A DNA stretch of 32,000 nucleotides from Candidatus Methylomirabilis oxygeniifera (GTDB taxonomy: Bacteria > Methylomirabilota > Methylomirabilia > Methylomirabilales > Methylomirabilaceae), in assembly GCA_000091165.1 (NCBI GenBank), contig FP565575.1, positions 30,001 to 62,000 on the forward strand, in the 5' to 3' direction. Made by a program: the position numbers and the translations under genes. Below are positions 4,617 to 28,028 of the stretch, one piece after another (positions within the stretch are counted from its first letter, which is position 1; each line of letters starts with the position of its first letter). The notes under the pieces were generated by a model. The model was not told the DNA's origin. It saw nothing but the letters and a program-made list of their open reading frames with translations, and ran no database searches.

Positions 4617-5432
4617 TCAGCTTAGGGCAGTTGAGAGTTCCTGGAGCAAAAGTCCAAGCCGCGTACAGACCGCTTTGGTTCGTCGACCCAGGCCGACCAG
4701 GTGGGAAAGGGTGAATGGATGCATGAGCAGGTATCGCGTCAATCGCGGCAGGTCCGGTTCGCCCTCCGCATCGAGAAACTGATCGAAGCCGACCGCGAGG
4801 TCCTCATGGACCGGATCGAGGATGCCGCGGATGGCCAGGAACGGGATCGAACAGGCCGAGGCCGCAGACGCGATGGCGGCGCTCTCCATGTCGACGGCCA
4901 GAGCACCGGACCCAGCCGCCAGGACCCGTTTCTCCTCCATCGTCAGAATGTGGTCGACGGTGAGGATTGGACCGAGGCAGTGCCGACTGTCCCATCGCCG
5001 GATCACGGTCATAGCCGCGTCCTGCAAACCGGGATCGCACGGAAAGCTTTCCAGTCTCGAATCCCTTCTTCCACACAACACCTGTCCTGAGTTTCGCCGA
5101 AGGATCGTCTGGTTTCCCACAATCAGGTCCCCTGCCTCTACATCAGGGCTTAGCCCGCCAGCGATGCCGAGCGATAAGGCGGCAGCAATAGGCGTTTCTT
5201 TAAAGAGGCGATGGGCAGCGGTTTCGGCGTAGTCCGGTCCTACGCCGGTCTTAGCTACCAGCAGATCGCGGCCCTTAACCGTAATCCGGATCATCGAGTC
5301 CGATCTGGACGCAGGTGGGCCGGTTGGCCGTAAAGCTGTCGCGAGGGGCTTCATCTCTGCCCGCGTCGCCACGAAGACGGCGAACGGCGCGTTACCGACC
5401 GTGCGGGTCCGGGAGGGGTGCGCCGTTGTCAT
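4617..5432 (-). CDS. hpnG: Hopanoid-associated phosphorylase HpnG (nucleoside phosphorylase family)
   Basis: PNP/UDP-phosphorylase-like sequence (FAVFVATRAEMKPL..., GIAGGL, AVDMESAAIA) immediately downstream of shc. The track ORF extends to 5582, but that N-terminus is antisense noise inside shc. I place the start at ATG 5432 (MTTAHPS...), overlapping the shc end by 41 nt. Confidence 0.8.
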   Translation of the reverse strand: MTTAHPSRTRTVGNAPFAVFVATRAEMKPLATALRPTGPPASRSDSMIRITVKGRDLLVAKTGVGPDYAETAAHRLFKETPIAAALSLGIAGGLSPDVEAGDLIVGNQTILRRNSGQVLCGRRDSRLESFPCDPGLQDAAMTVIRRWDSRHCLGPILTVDHILTMEEKRVLAAGSGALAVDMESAAIASAASACSIPFLAIRGILDPVHEDLAVGFDQFLDAEGEPDLPRLTRYLLMHPFTLSHLVGLGRRTKAVCTRLGLLLQELSTALS

Positions 5433-7395
5433 CGTGGCCGGCAGCGGCCTTCTGGAGCAGGGTGCGATAGAGGGAAAGGGCCCAGAGAGGGAAGTAGAGA
5501 CGATAGAGATGATACCGAAGATAGAAGACGCGGGGGAATCCTGTTCCTGTGAATTCTCGTTCCTCCCAATCGCCGTCCGCACCCTGGGTCCGGAGGAGGT
5601 AGTCGATACCTTTTTTCACCGCGGGATGTCGTACGACGCCGGCATGCAACAGTCCCAGGAGCGCCCAGGCGGTTTGCGAAGCGGTGCTTGGTCCCTGACC
5701 GGCTGTCCGTGGGTCCTCGTAGGAATGACACGATTCGCCCCAGCCCCCGTCCGGATTCTGATGGCTGATCAGCCAATCGACAGCTCGCCGGATGTAGGGC
5801 TGATCCATCCGCTCTCCGATAGCTCGAAGCCCGGCCAGTACCGACCAGGTTCCGTAGATGTAGTTGACCCCCCACCGACCGAACCAGCATCCTGTCGCCT
5901 CCTGCTCCCGCTTGAGGAACGCAATACCGCGCTGCGCCGCAGGGGCTGCGTTGCTCCAACCCAGATGGCCAAGCATCTCGAGCATCCGTCCGGTCAAGTC
6001 CGACGTAGGTGGATCGAGCAGCGCCTTGTGGTCCGCGAAGGGGATATCGTTCAGAAACAGCTTGTTGTTATCCTTGTCGTATGAGGCCCAGCCCCCATCG
6101 CTGGATTGCATCGGCAGGACCCACTTGAGCGCCTGCGCGAGCGCTGCGTCTTTGATTGCCTGATCGGGGAGATTGGTCTTGATCAGGGCGGTCATCACTA
6201 CGGCGCTATCGTCGACATCGGGATAGAACTCGTTCTCGAACTGAAAATACCAGCCGCCGGGCTCGGCGTCCGGAGCCTTGACCTTCCAGTCCGCGACCGT
6301 TCGGGTCTGCTTCGAGAGCAGCCATTCGCACGCGGTGATCAGCGCAGGATGATCGGTCGGCAACCCCGATGCAATCAGCGCATTCACCGCCAGACAGGTG
6401 TCCCAGCTAGGGGGGAAACAGGGCTGCACGTGAAGGGTTCGCTCATCTTCTACCTCGAGGGCTTCGATCTGCTTGAAGGCCCTGGCCACTAATGAGTGTT
6501 CGACCTCGTAGCCCAGACAGCGCAACGCGATGACCGAGTTTGCCATGGCCGGATAGATTCCGCCCAGGCCGCCTTCCCCCATGCGGCGCAGCATCCAGGC
6601 CGTGGCCCGCTCCATCGCCAACCGCCGGAAGTAGGATATCGGATGCCACTCATACCAACGAAGCACCCGATCGGCCGCCAGGAAAAGGTTTCGCCTCGCA
6701 AGCGGCTGCGGGTCTCTGGGAAACCAGTAGTCATGCTTTGGCGCGTCCCCCACACGAAGCTCCGCAAGATCGGCGCCGGCGGGGACCGGCGTGATCGGCT
6801 TGTGGGCAAAGATGATCATCAGGGGTGTGAGCACGGTTCTGGACCAGTAGGAGATCGCATGCATATTGAACAACGATCCTTGAGGCAGGAGGAACAGCTC
6901 GATCGGCATGGCCGGGACGCCGCGCCAGTCGAACTGGCCGAAGAGGGCGAGAGTAAATTTGGTGAAGACGTTCGCGCGGAATAGGCCGCCCTGGCGAAGG
7001 ATGACTTCTCGGGCCCGTTGCATGAACGGCTCTGCCTGACTGTGGCCGCATAGTTTCAGCGCGAAATAGGCCTTGACCGTCGTGCTCAAGTGGCTCGGCC
7101 CGCCATAGTAGATATTCCAGCCGCCATCCGGCAGTTGCGTATCGCGCAGGTAGGTTGCCGCCTTGCGCTGCTTTGTTTCGTCTACCTTACCGAGCAGGTA
7201 ACGGAGCATGATGTACTCGGAGGTGAGTGTGGAGTCGGCCTCCAGTTCTGCCGCCCAATAACCTGCGGGATCTTGCATGGCCAGGAGCCGAGACCTGGCC
7301 TGTTCGATCGCCTCGTCAAGCGGGTTACCATCAGCCGGCAGAACAGTGCGTATCATCTCAAGCTGCGAATGTCTTTCAGACGGTACCGACATCAC
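5392..7395 (-). CDS. shc: Squalene-hopene cyclase
   Basis: 667 aa with the catalytic DxDD motif (YPDVDDSAVV) and multiple QW repeats (QDPAGYW, QLPDGGW, QSSDGGW, QNPDGGW, QGADGDW). Confidence 0.96.
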   Translation of the reverse strand: MMSVPSERHSQLEMIRTVLPADGNPLDEAIEQARSRLLAMQDPAGYWAAELEADSTLTSEYIMLRYLLGKVDETKQRKAATYLRDTQLPDGGWNIYYGGPSHLSTTVKAYFALKLCGHSQAEPFMQRAREVILRQGGLFRANVFTKFTLALFGQFDWRGVPAMPIELFLLPQGSLFNMHAISYWSRTVLTPLMIIFAHKPITPVPAGADLAELRVGDAPKHDYWFPRDPQPLARRNLFLAADRVLRWYEWHPISYFRRLAMERATAWMLRRMGEGGLGGIYPAMANSVIALRCLGYEVEHSLVARAFKQIEALEVEDERTLHVQPCFPPSWDTCLAVNALIASGLPTDHPALITACEWLLSKQTRTVADWKVKAPDAEPGGWYFQFENEFYPDVDDSAVVMTALIKTNLPDQAIKDAALAQALKWVLPMQSSDGGWASYDKDNNKLFLNDIPFADHKALLDPPTSDLTGRMLEMLGHLGWSNAAPAAQRGIAFLKREQEATGCWFGRWGVNYIYGTWSVLAGLRAIGERMDQPYIRRAVDWLISHQNPDGGWGESCHSYEDPRTAGQGPSTASQTAWALLGLLHAGVVRHPAVKKGIDYLLRTQGADGDWEEREFTGTGFPRVFYLRYHLYRLYFPLWALSLYRTLLQKAAAGHDDNGAPLPDPHGR

Positions 7396-7397
7396 GC

Positions 7398-8398
7398 CTA
7401 CTCCAAAAAGTTCCAGACGGCCATCCTGAGCATGTCCTTTGGGCTATTTCGGAGCCCGAGGACCACTGAGGCTTCGAAGCCGGAGTGCATCTTGCAATTG
7501 TGGCAGCGCGGGTCCTGGCGGGACTCCCAGTAGTCCCAATCCACACTTTGCCAGAACTCCTCCCACGTCCGATAATACTTCTCCCCAATGAGGTAGCACG
7601 GCCCCCTCCAACCTTGAGGGGTATAGGTGACGGTGCTCCACGGGGAGCAGGGGTACTCGCGCAGGCCGGCCGCAAATTCGAGAAACATCGGGGTAGATGT
7701 CAGTCGATATCCCTTTGACAGCTCGAGCACCCTTTGGAACTTGTGGTGAATCTCCTCGCGAACCAGGAAGAAATCGGATTCGACCGAAACATACTGATAG
7801 CCCGGCGAGAGAAGCATCCCGTCCACCCGATACTCTTGCAGCAGGCGGCACAACGCCTCAACCTCGTCCATGTCGGTCTCTTTGAAGATGGTGTATTTGT
7901 TGTGATGCGATAACCCAACCGCTTGCCTTCCTTGATCATTTCGAGTGCTTTATCGAAGACACCTTCCCTGTCGCAGACCTGGTCGTGCGTCCGCTTCAGC
8001 CCGTCCAGGTGGATGTTGATCGTCAGCCGGTTGTGCGGCGTGATCTGGCCGTAGACGGTTCGATCAAGCATCAACCCGTTCGTGCACAGGTAGATGTGCC
8101 GCTTGCGGGCGATAATTCCCTCCACCAGCTCTTTCAGTTCCGGATAGATCGTGGGCTCTCCACCGCAGAGTGAGACGACCGGGGCGCCCGAGTCATCCGC
8201 CGCCTTCAGACACTCCTCCAGCGTCAATCGGTCCTCGATTCGCCCGGTGTGTCGTTCGACAGAGCACCCCAGACAGGCCAGGTTACACGTATAGAGCGGT
8301 TCGAGCATAAGGACGAACGGATACCGTGTGTTGCCTTTGAGTCCCTGGCGGATCTGGTGCTTCACCATGTCGGTCGTGATGTGCAGCGGAAATCTCAT
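7398..8398 (-). pseudogene. hpnH: Hopanoid biosynthesis radical SAM protein HpnH (adenosylhopane synthase), reading frame broken by a 1-nt shift near 7890-7893
   Basis: The N-terminal ORF 7700..8398 carries the radical SAM CNLACLGC motif and stays family-like up to ...GYRITTNT. The C-terminal ORF 7398..7871 (MDEVEALCRLLQEY...CHNCKMHSGFE) is the rest of the same protein in the -1 frame. Adding one base at AATACA^CC restores ...NTTIFKETDMDEVEAL. This could be an assembly error rather than a true pseudogene. Confidence 0.85.
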
Positions 8399-21915: not shown

Positions 21916-23243
21916 CAGAGATTGTTGTAGTTGGCGGAGGCTTGGCCGGAAGCGAAGCGGCCTGGCAGGCGGCGGAGCGGGGCGCCCATGTTCGCCTCTA
22001 CGAGATGCGTCCGGCCTACCCCACACCCGCCCACAGGACCGACCGATTAGCCGAACTGGTCTGCAGCAACTCCCTGAAGTCGGATTCGCCGGACGATTGC
22101 CACGGCCTGTTAAAGCGGGAACTGACCGCGTATGGGTCGGTAATTATGACCGCCGCCCGGGCGCACGCCGTCCCAGCGGGATCGGCGCTGGCCGTTGATC
22201 GTGACGCCTTCGCCGCCGAGGTGACTGCCAGGCTTGCGCACCACCCGCGCATTACTATTGTTCGGGACGAGGTCAAGGCCATACCGGAAGAGAGGCCGGT
22301 GATTATTGCTACCGGTCCGTTGACCTCCGAGCGGCTGGCCGGCGCGCTGCGCGATCGATTCGTGAACTATCCGGCATCGGTAGACTCGTCCGTCGATACG
22401 CAGGATCTGCTCTATTTCTATGACGCCATCTCACCCATCATCGCTGGGGATACTATTGACCGGACCGTGACGTTTGCCGCCTCTCGCTACGACAAGGGAG
22501 GGGACGATTATCTGAATTGTCCGATGACCCGGGAGGAGTATCGCCTCTTTTGGCAGTCAATCAGGACGGCGGAGTTGGCGCCGATCCACTCGTTCGAGGA
22601 GGCGCGATATTTTGAAGGGTGTCTCCCGATCGAGGTGTTGGCGGCTCGGGGCGAGGATGCCTTGCGGTTCGGACCGATGAAACCGGTAGGCCTGATCGAT
22701 CCCAGGACCGGACGTCGGCCCTGCGCCGTCGTACAACTCCGACTGGAGAACCGGGAAGGGACGATGTACAATATAGTGGGGTTTCAGACCCGCCTGAAGT
22801 GGGGCGAGCAGCACCGGATCCTCCGAACGATTCCCGGGCTGGGCGGCGCCGAATTCCTCAGATATGGCTCGATCCACCGCAATACCTTTATCAATGCACC
22901 GACACTACTCCGGGAGACGATGCAGTTGAAAGGCGACCCAGGGATCTTGCTGGCCGGGCAGCTTACCGGCGTGGAGGGATACCTGGAATCGGCCGGGAGC
23001 GGCTTGTTGGCCGGGATCAACGCGGTCAAACTCGTACACGGCGAGACACCGGTCGTGCTGCCGCCGACGACAGCCCTCGGGTCCCTCATCCGTCACATCT
23101 GCCACGCGGACGCCCTCACCTTCCAGCCGATGAACGTCAACTTCGGCCTCCTCCCGCCGCTCGACCAGCTGATCCGCGCCAAGCGCGACCGGCGCCAGGC
23201 CCTTGCCGCCCGAGCCCTCCGTAACCTGCCTGATCTCGCATGA
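21912..23243 (+). CDS. trmFO: Methylenetetrahydrofolate--tRNA-(uracil-5-)-methyltransferase TrmFO (Gid)
   Basis: GTG 21912 overlaps the topA stop as GTGA. FAD fold [21 protein letters not shown]. Contains [20 protein letters not shown]. The track N-terminal extension from 21747 lies inside topA. Confidence 0.93.
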
Positions 23244-23305
23244 CGAACTAAAACAGAATGTTCACACCATACCTTTGTCTTGATGTTGGAATCCACCTCA
23301 CCGCT

Positions 23306-23722
23306 TCAGGACATACCTTTGACGTGCTCGATCGCCTTGAGAAACCCGCCGACGCCGACAATTTGTGGTGTCGTGAAGTTGTGCGGGAAGTCTTTTCTGT
23401 TTTTTGTCACTATGTAATCAGCCCTGCCGGCAAGCGCCGCTTCAAGGAACTTTTCGTCATCCCGGTCTTTACACAGACCGCTCGTGGCCACTGGTTGCAC
23501 TTTTACCGCCCTCTCGAATATTAACTCCAGCAATTCCTCGGATTTGTGGGCCGGAATGGCATTGTCAAATACATGGATCACGTCCACATATTCACGAAAC
23601 ACCGCGCGAGATATCACCAGATCGAAGTCGCCGTCCCGAAACCGCCCGATAATCCTGGCCGATCCGCCGTTACCGTTGAGGAGACCCGCAAGCAAGACAT
23701 TGGTGTCGATGACCGCCCTCAC
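23306..23722 (-). CDS. PIN-domain toxin (VapC-like)
   Basis: GTG start overlaps the antitoxin stop as GTGA. Contains AVIDTNVLL, DRDDEKFLEAA and YIVTKNRKDF, the acidic PIN residues in the expected order. Confidence 0.85.
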   Translation of the reverse strand: MRAVIDTNVLLAGLLNGNGGSARIIGRFRDGDFDLVISRAVFREYVDVIHVFDNAIPAHKSEELLELIFERAVKVQPVATSGLCKDRDDEKFLEAALAGRADYIVTKNRKDFPHNFTTPQIVGVGGFLKAIEHVKGMS

Positions 23723-23994
23723 ATGCGCGTCCCCTGCCGGACTTTCTTCACCGCCTTATCGATGTCTTTCTCTGTGATGCCGGCGTGTGCTGCCGCATTG
23801 CGAACTGCGCTCAAGGCATCGTCGAATCTCTTATCCCAATCTACCCCTCTGTCGCTCACCCGCTTGGGCACGATGACAATCACGTTGTCCTGGTAGCGAA
23901 TATCCACGTAATCCCCTTCTTCAATGTGGGCCTTGCGCCGTACGGCGGCTGGGATGGTGACCTGAGCGAATTTTTTGACCTTGACCATCGACAT
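23719..23994 (-). CDS. AbrB/MazE/SpoVT-family antitoxin
   Basis: MSMVKVKKFAQVTIPAAVRRKAHIEEGDYVDIRYQDNVIVIVPK is a swapped-hairpin AbrB-type DNA-binding domain. AGGAGGT RBS is present. Confidence 0.8.
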   Translation of the reverse strand: MSMVKVKKFAQVTIPAAVRRKAHIEEGDYVDIRYQDNVIVIVPKRVSDRGVDWDKRFDDALSAVRNAAAHAGITEKDIDKAVKKVRQGTRM

Positions 23995-24017
23995 GGATGT
24001 ACCTCCTTCTCTAAAAT

Positions 24018-24040
24018 TATAATAAACGAAAGTTATTATA
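24018..24040 (-). promoter_or_regulatory. Candidate TA promoter/operator: 8-bp inverted repeat TATAATAA-7 nt-TTATTATA
   Basis: Arms at 24018-24025 and 24033-24040. On the minus strand, TATAAT (24040 to 24035) lies about 40 nt upstream of the antitoxin ATG. Autoregulatory operators of this form are typical for type II TA systems. Confidence 0.4.
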
Positions 24041-24076
24041 TCGTGAGAACGGTGTCAAGCAATTCGGGAGAGCGCC

Positions 24077-24116
24077 AAAAAACAGTGGGCGTCAGGCCTT
24101 GGCCGCCTGCGCCCAC
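24077..24116 (-). terminator. Rho-independent terminator-like hairpin followed by T6 (minus strand)
   Basis: The minus strand reads GTGGGCGCAGGCGGCCAAGGCCTGACGCCCAC TG TTTTTT. The stem is 7+5 bp with one bulge (24085-24116) and the T-run is at 24077-24082. It sits between the IS remnant and the TA promoter. Confidence 0.6.
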
Positions 24117-24133
24117 CGCGACTTACCTGGCCT

Positions 24134-24178
24134 GACGTGAACAGTGTGGGGATCCAAAAGCCCCACACTGTTCACGTC
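24134..24178. repeat. Perfect 18-bp stem hairpin GACGTGAACAGTGTGGGG-9 nt-CCCCACACTGTTCACGTC
   Basis: Arms at 24134-24151 and 24161-24178. No U-tract on either strand. Function unknown. Confidence 0.9.
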
Positions 24179-24373
24179 TCTGGCAATCTCACAGCGCTGG
24201 TTGGGCAGGACGAGAGTGTTTCGTTTCACTCGCAATGACGAACCGTATCGCATTTCTCAGAAAGGTGATTTTTCTTGACAGGGGATAGGGGGAATTAGTA
24301 AGAAGAGTCCTCACTTTGCGTAAACTTTGTGGTCTTACACTGAGAGGTCTTGTCGAGAGGTGTGCAAAAGAAG

Positions 24374-24878
24374 TCAGGCGGCAACCTCCCCGGCTCGCTC
24401 CATGACGCGCACTCCATTGACGAACGTAACGCCGTGAGCGACCTCCTGCAACAACTCCGCGGCGTTCAGTCGGCGAAATCGCTGTCAGGCCACCAGCAGC
24501 ATCTTCCAGAGAACCGCGGTGGCATTCTCCACCTTCTTGAAGCGTTTCGCCGCATCGGTCCTGAGCCGCAAGGCGGCAAAGGGCGACTCGATCGGATTAC
24601 TGGTCCGCAGGTGCACCCAGTGCTCCTTGGAAAGCTGGTAGAAGGTCAGCATCCGCTCCCAGTCCCGATCGAGCCGCCGGCGCACCGATAGACTGGAGCG
24701 GTCTGGACCACCTGCCTACGGACTGAAGAACGAATTGGACCGGCCCATGGATGCAGGCGACGCGAGATTGATCGATCTGCGCGATCATCGTTGCCAGAAA
24801 TTGCTCGATGATTTTATCTGCCTCTACGATCGAACCTTCACGGATCCCACGGAACGGGAGGATCCTAGTCAGTGGCAT
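24374..24878 (-). mobile_element. IS256-family (Mutator-like) transposase, C-terminal remnant, decayed
   Basis: 24485..24685 reads DWERMLTFYQLSKEHWVHLRTSNPIESPFAALRLRT...LWKMLLVA. After an in-frame TGA (24485-24487) the same frame continues QRFRRLNAAELLQEVAHGVTFVNGVRV... to 24374. An upstream piece (IVEADKIIEQFLAT...RVACI) is in another frame. The N-terminal two thirds, including the catalytic core, are absent. Confidence 0.75.
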
Positions 24879-24994
24879 GATCGGTTGTGCCCTTCACTCG
24901 CCTGATTGCCCGACTCTTCCATGCTCTTGTCGGCGGGTGTTGGCTTATCTGGCTTAGTCGGTTTCATCGCCACGCTTAGGGCTACTGGCGAGGC

Positions 24995-25633
24995 GTGCTC
25001 CTGCGGGCGGGGGGTGCGTTTCTCATCCTGGCCCTGCTGTGGATAGTGCTTGCGTCTCTGTATACGCAGCTCTTGGCCGCGTTCGCCCGTCCCCTGATCC
25101 CCTCGATCGAATCCTCGCCTGGTACCCGCTACCTCGTGGAGGGGACCCGGATCATCGCACAGCGTCCGCTCATGCGGCAAACGATCACGAATGTGACGAC
25201 GAGCCGTACGCCCCTGCATGAGACCTCCGCCGACTATCCCATCGCGCTGCTGGCCGCGCTCGTGCTTGCGACACCAGGCTGGTCGCTCACGCGACGGGGC
25301 CGGGTCTTGGCTGTGACTGTGGGCCTGCTCATCCTGACCCAATTCCTCTCGTTCCTCATCAATATCGAGTACACGAAGCTGTGGCCACAGAAGACCGCCG
25401 TCGGCCTCGTCGTCTCGACCGATTACTCGAAGGCGAAGATGATTCTGTTCGATTGGCTGTATGCCTTCTCAGAGTTTATGGGCCGCGGCTTCTTTGCGCT
25501 GTTGCTGTACTTCGGAGCGATTACCCTGGTCTGGGGCCGCCCGGAGGACCGGATACTCGACGCTACGGTCGGAAGGAACGCGCCCTGCCCCTGTGGGAGC
25601 GGGCTGAAGGCTAAGCGATGCTGCGGAGGGTAA
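24995..25633 (+). CDS. Multi-TM membrane protein with C-terminal SEC-C zinc-binding motif
   Basis: GTG is the only start in the open frame. About 4 hydrophobic helices (AFLILALLWIVLASLY, YPIALLAALVLA, VLAVTVGLLILTQFLSFLI, FFALLLYFGAITLVW). The tail GRNAPCPCGSGLKAKRCCGG is a SEC-C motif. The core family is not recognised. Confidence 0.65.
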   Translation: MLLRAGGAFLILALLWIVLASLYTQLLAAFARPLIPSIESSPGTRYLVEGTRIIAQRPLMRQTITNVTTSRTPLHETSADYPIALLAALVLATPGWSLTRRGRVLAVTVGLLILTQFLSFLINIEYTKLWPQKTAVGLVVSTDYSKAKMILFDWLYAFSEFMGRGFFALLLYFGAITLVWGRPEDRILDATVGRNAPCPCGSGLKAKRCCGG

Positions 25634-25815
25634 GCAAGGGGGGAGGCGGGACGTTGGTGGCGGTCATTCAATCCGACCTCGGTGCCTCTGGCGCGGGCCC
25701 TCGGTCGGTTCATTCTGCGTTCGGTTGCAGAGCTGGCTCGTCGACAGAAAGGTGTGGTAGAATAGAACCATAATACAGAAGATCGTCAAGAAATTTCACT
25801 TGCAAGACCGTGCGT

Positions 25816-25884
25816 ATTCCGATTAATCTTGCCACTGATTCCGATTTGAATATTGCCATCGATTCCGATCCAAAAATGCCACCC
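25816..25884. repeat. Three tandem iteron-like units ATTCCGAT-N6-8-TGCCA (22-24 bp period)
   Basis: Units start at 25816, 25838 and 25862: ATTCCGATTAATCTTGCCAC, ATTCCGATTTGAATATTGCCAT, ATTCCGATCCAAAAATGCCAC. They lie in the AT-richer non-coding stretch between the SEC-C gene and the IPTL-CTERM ORF. Confidence 0.7.
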
Positions 25885-26052
25885 AACCAATACTCCACTT
25901 GATCGCAATCGTTTATGATGCGGATCTTTCCATTTTGCCTCCTGGCCGCTGATAGCTGCAAGCTTTTTCGCTTGACAGGTCCGGGAGGGACGTAGTTCAC
26001 ACCACCGCGAGTCAGGGACCGGCGCACTACGCAAGGGAAACGGTACGATGAC

Positions 26053-26430
26053 GTGCTGGGATTGCATGTTCGGTGGCGACACCACCACCTATATACCACC
26101 TCCACCTCACACCATACGACCTACAGCACCGCCGAGGGCTGCGCGCCGCAGACCGAGGAGACCGTAACAACCACCGCGGCGTTCGGACCCGCGTGGATCT
26201 GCATCGGCGATGATGGAGGGGATAAGATCTACCCGAACTGCAGCCCGGGATTCCCCTTCGAGATCATAGCGGGCTCCGTCAATTACAACACGAATACGCA
26301 CACGGAGACGTATGTGTGCAGTGCCGATCCGGCCGCCATCCCCACCCTCTCCGAATGGGCGCAGCTCGACATGGCCGCCCTGCTGGTCGGCGGCGGCCTG
26401 CTGGCGATACGAAGACAGGCTAAAGGCTGA
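26053..26430 (+). CDS. Small Cys-containing protein with IPTL-CTERM-type C-terminal sorting signal (possibly 5'-defective)
   Basis: The C-terminus AIPTLSEWAQLDMAALLVGGGLLAIRRQAKG has an IPTLSEW motif, a hydrophobic helix and a basic cluster. No signal peptide follows the GTG 26053 start. Confidence 0.55.
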   Translation: MLGLHVRWRHHHLYTTSTSHHTTYSTAEGCAPQTEETVTTTAAFGPAWICIGDDGGDKIYPNCSPGFPFEIIAGSVNYNTNTHTETYVCSADPAAIPTLSEWAQLDMAALLVGGGLLAIRRQAKG

Positions 26431-26447
26431 AGACCGAAGTCACGTAC

Positions 26448-26516
26448 GTCGGGTTAGCGTCGCGTAACCCGACATTCGCCTTCGAGCCACCAGGTGACGG
26501 CCTGAACGGCCTCACC
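26448..26516. repeat. Two adjacent hairpins sharing an ACCCGAC core, in a convergent intergenic region
   Basis: The first is GTCGGGTTA-8 nt-TAACCCGAC (26448-26473). The second is GGTGACGGCC-TGAAC-GGCCTCACC (26493-26516), followed by CGACCTACG. They may act as bidirectional terminators or a REP-like element. Confidence 0.5.
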
Positions 26517-26575
26517 CGACCTACGTTGCGACGTCCTGCTTGTCCCCTTCATCAGCCGTCGTCGCCGCTTTCAAC

Positions 26576-27751
26576 TTAAGTATACGCTCCACTCCACAGT
26601 TGCTCCAGGAACTCCCTGAACGGAAGCGCAGTCACTTGTCCGATGGTTCGTGGACGCGGCTCAAGACTCACACAGAGATAGCGCTTTAAGTTCTTTTCCT
26701 CCGCCAGTGCCAGCAGCGATTTCAGGTCCTGTGGCGACAGGTGTTCTTTTGCCTTCACCTCCACCGCCGTATGATCGCCGATGATAAAATCTACCTCAAA
26801 TCCCGACGTGGATCGCCAGTAGCTGAGCGGCTCTCCGAAGACATAGTCACGATAACTGAGCAGTTCGTGCATGACGTAGGTCTCGAACGCCTCGCCGAAC
26901 TCAGGGGTGCCGGGTCGATACTCGCGACCTTGCAGCGCTGCGACCACCCCGATGTCGAAAAAGTAATACTTCGAGGACGCCACAGGCTTTCTTTTCTTTG
27001 ACCGGCGCCACGCGGGCAGTTCGTGGAGCACCAGCGTATCCTGAAGAATCTCGAAGTATTCGTACACTGTTGTACGTGCCACTTGGGCATCATTGGCGAC
27101 ATTCGTAAAGTTTACGATCGTTCCATTACACAGGGCGGCCACTCGGAGAAAACGGCTGAAGGCTGGAACGTTACGGGTCATTCCTTCGGCGACGATCTCT
27201 TGCTGAAGATACGATCCCGCATAGGCTTGGAGATCGGCGCGCGGATCGTCCGAAAAGTAGATCGATGGGAGCAGCCCGCGTTCAACGGCGCGGATCAGAT
27301 CGAACCGTCGGCCCAGTTCCCGGTATGTGAGCGGATGAAGGTGCGTTGTGCGCGCGCGCCCTCCCAAGAGGTTGACGCCGCCGCGACGGAGCTTGCGCGC
27401 GCTGGAGCCGGTGAGCAAAAAACGTATGCCGCGCTCTTCGATGAGGCGGTGCACCTCGTTCAGCAGTTCAGGCAGGCGTTGAATCTCATCGATGACGACC
27501 ACGCGGTCGTGCGGGGTGAGTTCCTGTGCGATGCGCTCGGGTCTGCGACTGAGCGCCAGATAGATTGAGCTGTCCAGCAGATCGTAGACCCGCGTACCTT
27601 GCAAGGCGTGACGAATCAAAAATGTCTTTCCCGTCTGCCGTGGCCCTAGAAGGAAATAGGATTTGTTCTCCAGCAGAGCAGGAAGATCCAGGATGCGTGC
27701 TATTTTGGGTGGGTTGTCATGTGTCGTCGTCATAGTCATATATGATGCCAA
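26576..27751 (-). CDS. AAA+ ATPase with C-terminal DUF4143-type domain (COG1373-like)
   Basis: Walker A LLGPRQTGKTF and Walker B VVVIDEIQ. The C-terminal half (YYFFDIGVVAAL...GFEVDFII...AVEVKA) is typical of the DUF4143 nuclease-fold domain. Confidence 0.9.
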   Translation of the reverse strand: MASYMTMTTTHDNPPKIARILDLPALLENKSYFLLGPRQTGKTFLIRHALQGTRVYDLLDSSIYLALSRRPERIAQELTPHDRVVVIDEIQRLPELLNEVHRLIEERGIRFLLTGSSARKLRRGGVNLLGGRARTTHLHPLTYRELGRRFDLIRAVERGLLPSIYFSDDPRADLQAYAGSYLQQEIVAEGMTRNVPAFSRFLRVAALCNGTIVNFTNVANDAQVARTTVYEYFEILQDTLVLHELPAWRRSKKRKPVASSKYYFFDIGVVAALQGREYRPGTPEFGEAFETYVMHELLSYRDYVFGEPLSYWRSTSGFEVDFIIGDHTAVEVKAKEHLSPQDLKSLLALAEEKNLKRYLCVSLEPRPRTIGQVTALPFREFLEQLWSGAYT

Positions 27752-28028
27752 ATGACGATAGCGTCGTCAACACCTAATACGGTGGCTGGCTTCCTGCCCC
27801 TGAACATCCTGCACGAACCCGTAGTTGTCCCCTTCACCCGCGTCAGCGTCCGGCTCTTCCACGACTTCCTTCTCAGACCTTGAGCGCCTGCTCCTTGGCC
27901 ATGCGTATTGCCGTCGGCGTCTGTGGTTTTGCGGCCGGCGCTATGCCTTCTTCGAGTTCATGTTTTGCCTTGATCTTTCGACCTATTCCTCGTATCGTAC
28001 CGAACAGGCGCAGACGCGGGTTGAGCAG

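Follow-up and report, generated by a model that had tools for sequence, protein, structure and literature searches.

Probable remains of an exosortase H operon between trmFO and xerC in Candidatus Methylomirabilis oxyfera

Introduction

Exosortase H (XrtH; TIGR04177) and the IPTL-CTERM sorting signal (TIGR04174/PF18203) belong to a protein-sorting system that is already curated in NCBIfam and Pfam, together with a family named "exosortase H-associated membrane protein" (XrtH_assoc; NF041730/PF28117). The present analysis concerns a 32,000-nucleotide (nt) stretch of the Candidatus Methylomirabilis oxyfera chromosome (contig FP565575.1, positions 30,001 to 62,000; hereafter the window, whose own numbering is used throughout), in which two open reading frames (ORFs) between trmFO and xerC encode a membrane protein with a SEC-C tail (24995-25633) and a small protein that ends in an IPTL-CTERM signal (26053-26430). 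Very probably, these two ORFs are the remains of a known exosortase H operon that has decayed in this organism. All three genes of the operon (xrtH, the membrane partner and the cargo) carry damage in the window, and an intact copy is present elsewhere in the genome. The window thus adds a divergent, sub-threshold and damaged member to a system that has already been described.

Partner proteins are known from other exosortases. Long exosortases such as XrtA have non-catalytic partners of the EpsI type, which consist of a single-anchor periplasmic domain and are encoded beside the exosortase or fused to it. The second point of reference is the SEC-C motif, which also forms the C-terminal metal-binding domain of SecA; domains of this type are stated in a bioRxiv report to bind SecB and ribosomes (10.1101/613315). 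IPTL-CTERM sorting is relevant to the Methylomirabilis envelope, since the S-layer protein of M. lanthanidiphila bears an IPTL-CTERM domain (PMC8671808). A literature search on XrtH, exosortase H and IPTL-CTERM returned this S-layer paper only, and no experimental study of the system or of the partner.

A sequence-only reading of the window had suggested that the two ORFs form a sorting pair and that, if the link were functional, the membrane protein would be a sorting enzyme of a new type. The evidence presented below supports the functional link and speaks against the new enzyme.

Gene neighborhood and family identity of the membrane protein

The central element of the locus is the following gene.

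24995-25633, plus strand: body of the membrane protein, with four transmembrane helices, a small periplasmic beta-sheet and a SEC-C motif (212 amino acids (aa); the first available start is GTG 24995)

A total of 128 homologues of this ORF were found. The family is small. A search of 1.84 billion representatives gave about 150 clusters at 50% identity with E ≤ 1e-10, a minority of them matching through SEC-C alone. A genome scan based on the full-length alignment was dominated by the PCPCGSGLK pattern and retrieved only the SEC-C tails of unrelated proteins (loci L008-L087), with no usable context. When the SEC-C tail was left out of the query, a metagenome scan yielded 69 loci; 52 of these extend at least 550 nt upstream from the homologue and form the informative set. 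In 49 of these 52, an XrtH gene lies directly upstream on the same strand, usually overlapping the homologue, and the two genes have the same relative position in 52 of the 59 XrtH-membrane ORF pairs that were scored. In intact loci, the final ~56-60 nt of xrtH also encode, in a second frame, the N-terminal extension of the partner. The neighboring enzyme in L001, another M. oxyfera assembly, is P0144, which passes the exosortase H model TIGR04177 (88.6 bits; cut-off 86). In L128 (JACXTT010054977.1, 3094-4596), XrtH and the partner are even encoded in one continuous reading frame, which then runs into a class III nucleotide cyclase-like segment (VTVLFTDIVGST…) in place of the SEC-C tail; this is a single contig, in which an assembly frameshift is possible. 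IPTL-CTERM ORFs were detected in 18 of 71 loci (the 69 metagenomic loci, L001 and the window), most of the contigs being only 1-5 kb long.

Profile searches point in the same direction. NF041730 (XrtH_assoc) is the sole profile that matches the membrane body outside the SEC-C tail, covering residues 2-128 with 20.9 bits (E 2.5e-4) and not reaching its cut-off of 35. The same profile matches eight of ten tested relatives with 20-28 bits, all below the cut-off, and it is cleared by P0187, a distant SEC-C-tailed relative, with 38.1 bits over positions 1-180 of 184. Precomputed PF28117 (XrtH_assoc) matches exist for many homologues and for the window protein there is none. On these sequence grounds, the window protein is a putative divergent, sub-threshold relative of the exosortase H-associated membrane proteins. 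A SEC-C tail is present in most full-length members (44 of 59 complete ORFs).

The genomic context, above all the adjacency to XrtH, constitutes the decisive evidence and identifies the protein as a predicted non-catalytic partner of exosortase H rather than a new sortase. Taken together, the adjacency, the recurrent cargo ORFs and the weak yet consistent XrtH_assoc matches uphold the proposed link to IPTL-CTERM sorting, including the co-occurrence of homologues with IPTL-CTERM cargo.

Topology and predicted fold of the partner

The partner ORF terminates in …GRNAPCPCGSGLKAKRCCGG, and its tail (residues 194-211, nt 25574-25627) matches PF02810 SEC-C with 31.6 bits (cut-off 20.4). Its only cysteines, C198, C200, C209 and C210, all lie in CPCGSGLKAKRCC. 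Hydropathy indicates four membrane helices, in agreement with an AlphaFold2 model for which 18 homologues were used (predicted local distance difference test score 86.5, predicted template-modelling score 0.76). The model comprises long helices at residues 2-38, 98-129 and 146-179, a short helix at 82-91, a three-stranded sheet at 45-76 and a hairpin at 132-139, in addition to a disordered linker and a zinc knuckle. Helices 2 and 3 are joined by a short loop with a strong positive charge (TRRGR), and the topology predicted from it is N-in, C-in, with both the N-terminus and the SEC-C tail in the cytoplasm. The description of the protein in the sequence-only reading, with about four transmembrane segments and with its sole cysteines in a cytoplasmic SEC-C motif, therefore agrees with the model. 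Across the 18 homologues, Y46, G50, R57, A88, A92, P94, W96, G137, L155, F158, R194 and N195 are invariant.

Lesions in xrtH, the partner gene and the cargo gene

The damaged operon is made up of the features below.

24878-24979, plus strand: xrtH remnant of 33 codons, encoding the peptide SVVPFTRLIARLFHALVGGCWLIWLSRFHRHA followed by a stop
24906-24982, plus strand: ancestral 5′ end of the partner gene (…SAGVGLSGLVGFIATLRAT), which formerly overlapped the 3′ end of xrtH in another frame
25900-26062, plus strand: conserved upstream/leader region of the small cargo gene, with a TTGACA motif (76% identical to L159 2119-2280)
26053-26430, plus strand: small IPTL-CTERM cargo gene, 5′-truncated, of the TTSTSHHTTYS…NTNTHTETxVC family (GTG start, 125 aa)
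27752-27883, plus strand: second scrap resembling the XrtH N-terminus (…TVAGFLPLNILHEPVVVPFTRVSVRLFH…, …FLPLNILHEPVVVPFTRVSVRLFH…), just 5′ of xerC

Two relatives carry the operon at the same chromosomal site. The order in L088, whose partner is 82% identical to the window protein, is trmFO, a 404-aa IPTL-CTERM cargo, xrtH, partner, xerC and hslV, and that in L157 is trmFO, xrtH, partner, the 134-aa small cargo and xerC.

Tblastn with the XrtH sequences of L088 and L089 places nt 24884-24931 at residues 46-61 (75% identity) and nt 24917-24976 at residues 156-175 (75% identity, E 1e-5). The remnant thus fuses XrtH residues ~46-58 directly to ~155-175, with about 100 codons deleted, and the segments bearing the catalytic Cys, Arg and His (NNCN…, NLLR…, AHLY…) of the full-length enzyme (~160-175 aa) are missing. 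In the DNA alignment, the deletion junction lies at the microhomology TCTTCCATGC, and 24914/24915 is the point from which the window aligns with every relative.

The partner gene has lost one nucleotide near 24982 (GCTTAGGG-CTACTGG) in comparison with L088, L089, L090, L157 and L001. As a result of this deletion, the ancestral start and the ~40-residue N-terminal extension, which is visible in the ORF opening at TTG 24906, are out of frame with the body, and tblastn assigns the extension (24939-24986) and the body to different frames. The former stop codon of xrtH now stands in frame just before the body, and GTG 24995, preceded by GAGG 1 nt upstream, is the first usable start.

The cargo ORF terminates in AIPTLSEWAQLDMAALLVGGGLLAIRRQAKG / …DPAAIPTLSEWAQLDMAALLVGGGLLAIRRQAKG, with the sorting signal at nt 26338-26418. 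Its tail passes both IPTL-CTERM models (TIGR04174, 36.8 bits with a cut-off of 20.5; PF18203, 21.6 bits with a cut-off of 20.8), and the layout recognized in the sequence-only reading was correct. The protein is 77% identical to the small cargo of L157. No N-terminal hydrophobic segment or signal peptide was detected in the cargo ORF, and the homologues P0124, P0127, P0128 and P0129 bear N-terminal hydrophobic signal peptides. Relative to L159 and L157, the window lacks about 150 nt between 26062 and 26095, a segment that encodes the start codon and signal peptide (…GLWGALVLVMLVALS…). What was once leader sequence now supplies the first ~13 codons of the ORF. The sorting helix has in addition undergone a G-to-D change (AQLDMAALLV vs AQIGMAALLV).

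The region of L159 that matches the window upstream of the cargo gene (2119-2280) likewise lies upstream of the L159 cargo start. Within it, an ORF-like stretch at 25915-25995 (MMRIFPFCLLAADSC…) is kept as MMRFPPFCFLAADRC… at L159 2134-2215, just before the conserved TTGACA. The stretch may encode a leader peptide, or it may be no more than conserved promoter DNA. As a candidate for the signal peptide of the cargo it was rejected, because an in-frame stop lies between it and the ORF, because it is unlike the signal peptides of the homologues, and because its L159 counterpart precedes the real start.

Sequencing error was rejected as the source of these lesions. Across 24700-26500, the window is identical in six independent assemblies except for one repeat unit, and the lesions, being the same in all six, are therefore not sequencing errors.

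The scrap at 27752-27883 aligns with residues 31-62 of L088 XrtH (59% identity, E 5e-5 by tblastn). It is 86% DNA-identical to L157 2256-2427, that is, to a locus in which xrtH is intact, and hence it represents an older partial duplication that predates the xrtH deletion. Over 27752-27962, the XrtH-like part is followed by a weak match to the …YAFFEFM segment of the partner.

Loss of xrtH at this site recurs independently in other lineages, namely L090, L139 and L159. In L090 (177-467), a fusion joins the IPTL-CTERM helix of a cargo to the final XrtH residues. L139 (914-1723) has no xrtH between a cargo tail (…PTLSEWGVI…) and the N-terminal extension of the partner, which adjoin directly. In L159, both xrtH and the partner are gone, and trmFO is followed only by a 67-aa IPTL-CTERM stub (1645-1848).

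A second, intact locus in the same genome

A canonical exosortase is encoded elsewhere in the genome. The XrtH protein CBE68293.1 (UniRef D5MEW4, "Exosortase H") lies on the same 2,752,854-bp contig as the window, and P0144, the L001 enzyme that passes TIGR04177, is its cluster mate (≥90% identical). The adjoining CBE68292 and CBE68291 fall in the ≥90% identity cluster of P0025, a paralogue of the window membrane protein with 64% identity. In L001, the corresponding order is a 484-aa autotransporter-repeat IPTL-CTERM protein, a toxin-antitoxin pair, xrtH and the paralogue. IPTL-CTERM sorting in M. oxyfera should accordingly depend on this second, intact xrtH locus with its own partner paralogue.

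Two details of the reference annotation of this locus deserve mention. The paralogue is split into CBE68292.1 (172 aa) and CBE68291.1 (64 aa), which together equal the 236 aa of P0025; this reflects either a frameshift or stop in the reference, or an interruption of that copy as well. In addition, XrtH is annotated with 155 aa in the reference, compared with 175 aa in other assemblies.

Proposed working and decay of the system

On this evidence, the trmFO-xerC segment would once have held a full operon consisting of xrtH, an overlapping partner gene and a gene for a small secreted IPTL-CTERM cargo. By analogy with the families involved, the cargo would be exported by the Sec pathway and retained in the membrane by its C-terminal IPTL helix, after which XrtH, a presumed Cys/Arg/His transpeptidase-like membrane enzyme, would cleave at IPTLxxW and attach the protein to the envelope. 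The partner, with its four transmembrane helices, may act as a non-catalytic subunit or adaptor that complements the very short XrtH (~160-175 aa), and its cytoplasmic SecA-type zinc tail might plausibly tie the complex to SecB, to ribosomes or to the Sec translocon. In this genome, the locus has since decayed through deletion of the xrtH core, a frameshift at the partner start, loss of the cargo signal peptide and the arrival of mobile DNA, namely the toxin-antitoxin pair, the IS fragment and the AAA ATPase gene described below.

A more specific version of the adaptor idea can be put forward tentatively, although it is judged rather unlikely as a whole. By analogy with SecA, the zinc tail would dock XrtH on SecB, ribosomes or SecYEG/SecA, so that the IPTL-CTERM helix would pass straight from the translocon to the sortase, and the damaged window copy might supply such an adaptor in trans. 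If true, it would connect an exosortase physically to the Sec machinery for the first time, and it would bear on the anchoring of S-layer proteins in Methylomirabilis.

Surroundings of the locus

The conserved gene string around the locus reads secD–secF–gmhA–dacA-like–dprA–topA–trmFO … xerC–hslV–hslU. The trmFO-xerC interval (~23.3-27.8 kb) contains a toxin-antitoxin pair, an IS256-family fragment, the two ORFs under study and an AAA_14/DUF4143 ATPase gene, which is in keeping with the accessory patch noticed earlier from the sequence. The inserted elements are as follows.

23306-23994, minus strand: PIN toxin and MazE/AbrB-type antitoxin pair (PF13470, 82.3 bits; PF04014, 46.7 bits)
24485-24685, minus strand: C-terminal fragment of an IS256-family (Mutator-type) transposase (PF00872, 25.1 bits, profile positions 309-364 of 379)
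26576-27751, minus strand: AAA_14/DUF4143 ATPase gene (PF13635, 108.2 bits; PF13173, 77.9 bits)

The toxin-antitoxin pair is an insertion relative to syntenic relatives, and nothing of the kind lies between trmFO and the xrtH operon in L088 or L157. A stretch of about 55 nt from the 3′ end of trmFO (or from the sequence just downstream, as in L088/L157) is present at both 23171-23230 and 24088-24146; the two copies flank the PIN/MazE insert and look like a duplication caused by cassette insertion. Between this insert and the transposase fragment, which lies 5′ of the xrtH remnant, there is a 45-nt near-perfect palindrome (24134-24178; 84% self-complementary). The ATPase gene is inserted between the cargo gene and xerC and is absent in L157 and L088.

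An NCBIfam scan of 20 further ORFs in the window revealed no exosortase and matched only housekeeping genes (hopanoid, polyamine, SecDF, dprA, topA, xerC and others). A hopanoid cluster on the minus strand (7700-8398 and 4617-7395) encodes a squalene-hopene cyclase, an HpnG-like phosphorylase and HpnH. As listed, the HpnH ORF covers only positions 1-174 of the 318-position profile, which points to a possible truncation or to a possible continuation of the gene in a different frame. The only Rfam hit for a non-coding RNA in 23200-28000 was a chance microRNA match (E 0.048), and promoter and terminator sites in 24000-26600 are no more numerous than in shuffled sequence.

Alternative explanations

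The possibility that the SEC-C membrane protein itself cleaves and anchors IPTL-CTERM proteins was suggested by its position next to an IPTL-CTERM ORF in a 32-kb window that holds no intact exosortase. A Foldseek search of the PDB with its predicted fold gave no match (best E 0.49, template-modelling score 0.25), which leaves a catalytic role conceivable on structural grounds. However, no invariant Cys, His or Ser occurs outside the cytoplasmic zinc motif across the 18 homologues, and the failure of the sequence-only reading to recognize an exosortase Cys/Arg/His pattern in the protein was justified, as all four cysteines belong to SEC-C. The homologues are almost always encoded together with a canonical, motif-bearing XrtH. 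The protein showed no homology to exosortases (TIGR04178, PF09721) at E values up to 10, and the partner family was also rejected as a remote XrtH homologue (hhalign probability 5.7%). With an xrtH remnant directly upstream and an intact XrtH elsewhere in the genome, the new-enzyme idea is already largely refuted, and we consider it scarcely credible. Almost as little probability attaches to a protein-binding, iteron-like array that would control the pair through the repeat between the two genes:

25816-25883, no strand assigned: tandem repeat of 3.0 copies with a ~24-nt period (Tandem Repeats Finder score 71; consensus ATTCCGATTTAATATTGCCACCG)

The repeat is real, as the sequence-only reading had observed, and its three direct units share a conserved ATTCCGAT…TTGCCA core 5′ of the cargo gene, but the regulatory role assigned to it is not borne out. 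Its copy number varies between two and three among otherwise identical assemblies, as slippage predicts; L007 lacks exactly one unit (25837-25860), and the five other assemblies are identical to the window. In the homologous intergenic regions of L157 and L159, both the repeat and its surroundings (~200-260 nt) are missing. Moreover, the repeat has no neighboring regulator gene, and a consensus promoter scan found no plus-strand site there. A regulatory function is thus very improbable.

The remaining question is whether the locus is a relic or merely damaged, and here several observations weigh against the interpretation as a decayed exosortase H operon. The window protein stays below the NF041730 cut-off, about a quarter of the homologous ORFs have no SEC-C motif (some of them owing to contig frameshifts), and the proposed role of the tail rests on its likeness to the SecA metal-binding domain. 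To our knowledge, the cleavage and attachment chemistry of XrtH has never been demonstrated experimentally. The 212-codon body remains open and identical in six assemblies, and its translation from GTG 24995 could still yield a protein that acts with the other XrtH. Its ratios of nonsynonymous to synonymous substitution rates against relatives (0.14-0.23) are no higher than those among relatives with intact operons, a pairwise measure that averages over long divergence and is blind to recent loss of constraint. L090 keeps an open partner ORF at a site that has likewise lost xrtH, and the upstream region of the cargo gene with its TTGACA motif is conserved. The open body, its substitution ratios, the L090 case and the conserved upstream region would fit a locus in which the membrane protein, lacking its N-terminal extension, serves as a second partner for the XrtH of the other locus, and in which the 125-aa protein is still produced and plays some part even though its signal peptide is lost. 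On the other hand, xrtH once contained the ancestral start of the partner gene together with its upstream context, both of which have since been frameshifted or deleted, the GAGG at 1 nt from GTG 24995 is poorly spaced, a cargo with no signal peptide cannot reach the periplasm by Sec, the sorting helix carries the G-to-D change, and in L139, which has also lost xrtH, the partner gene is frameshifted. Residual function is consequently regarded as improbable, and the window copy is most likely a relic of the exosortase H operon.

Comparison with known systems

Compared with the XrtH/IPTL-CTERM system, the locus agrees in that the cargo tail passes both IPTL-CTERM models, in that XrtH is encoded at the same site in relatives and at the second locus, where TIGR04177 is passed, and in that the relatives show the typical order with cargo genes flanking xrtH. 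It differs in retaining only the 33-codon xrtH remnant and a cargo deprived of its signal peptide, and for these reasons the local copy cannot work on its own. Resemblance to the NF041730/PF28117 family lies in the length (~200 aa), the multiple transmembrane helices and, at the family level, the position directly downstream of and overlapping xrtH. The window clade is distinguished by a C-terminal SEC-C motif that falls outside the 184-position NF041730 profile, and the window gene itself by its 5′ frameshift, the disappearance of its xrtH partner and its score of 20.9 bits versus 35.

The EpsI-type partners of long exosortases offer a parallel in concept, as the XrtH-partner fusion in L128 is comparable to the fusions known from that group. 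There is no sequence similarity (a Pfam scan of the membrane protein at E values up to 10 matched SEC-C only), and four transmembrane helices are present instead of a single anchor. With the C-terminal metal-binding domain of SecA and with YecA/YchJ (PF02810), the partner shares the CxCx8C[C/H] motif at the extreme C-terminus, a flexible linker before the motif and a predicted cytoplasmic location. Here, however, the motif is carried by a polytopic membrane protein of an exosortase system and not by a soluble ATPase or chaperone-like protein, and binding to SecB or ribosomes would be an extrapolation from SecA.

The locus itself is ordinary, namely a decaying duplicate of a curated sorting system with a working copy elsewhere in the genome, and the one feature of interest is the SecA-like zinc tail that is conserved on an XrtH partner. 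Proteins of this clade are at present named only "SEC-C domain-containing" or "YecA family", and their near-constant pairing with XrtH would justify a name as XrtH partners. Together with the one natural XrtH–partner fusion, the SEC-C tail offers a testable idea of how a minimal exosortase might be coupled to protein export.

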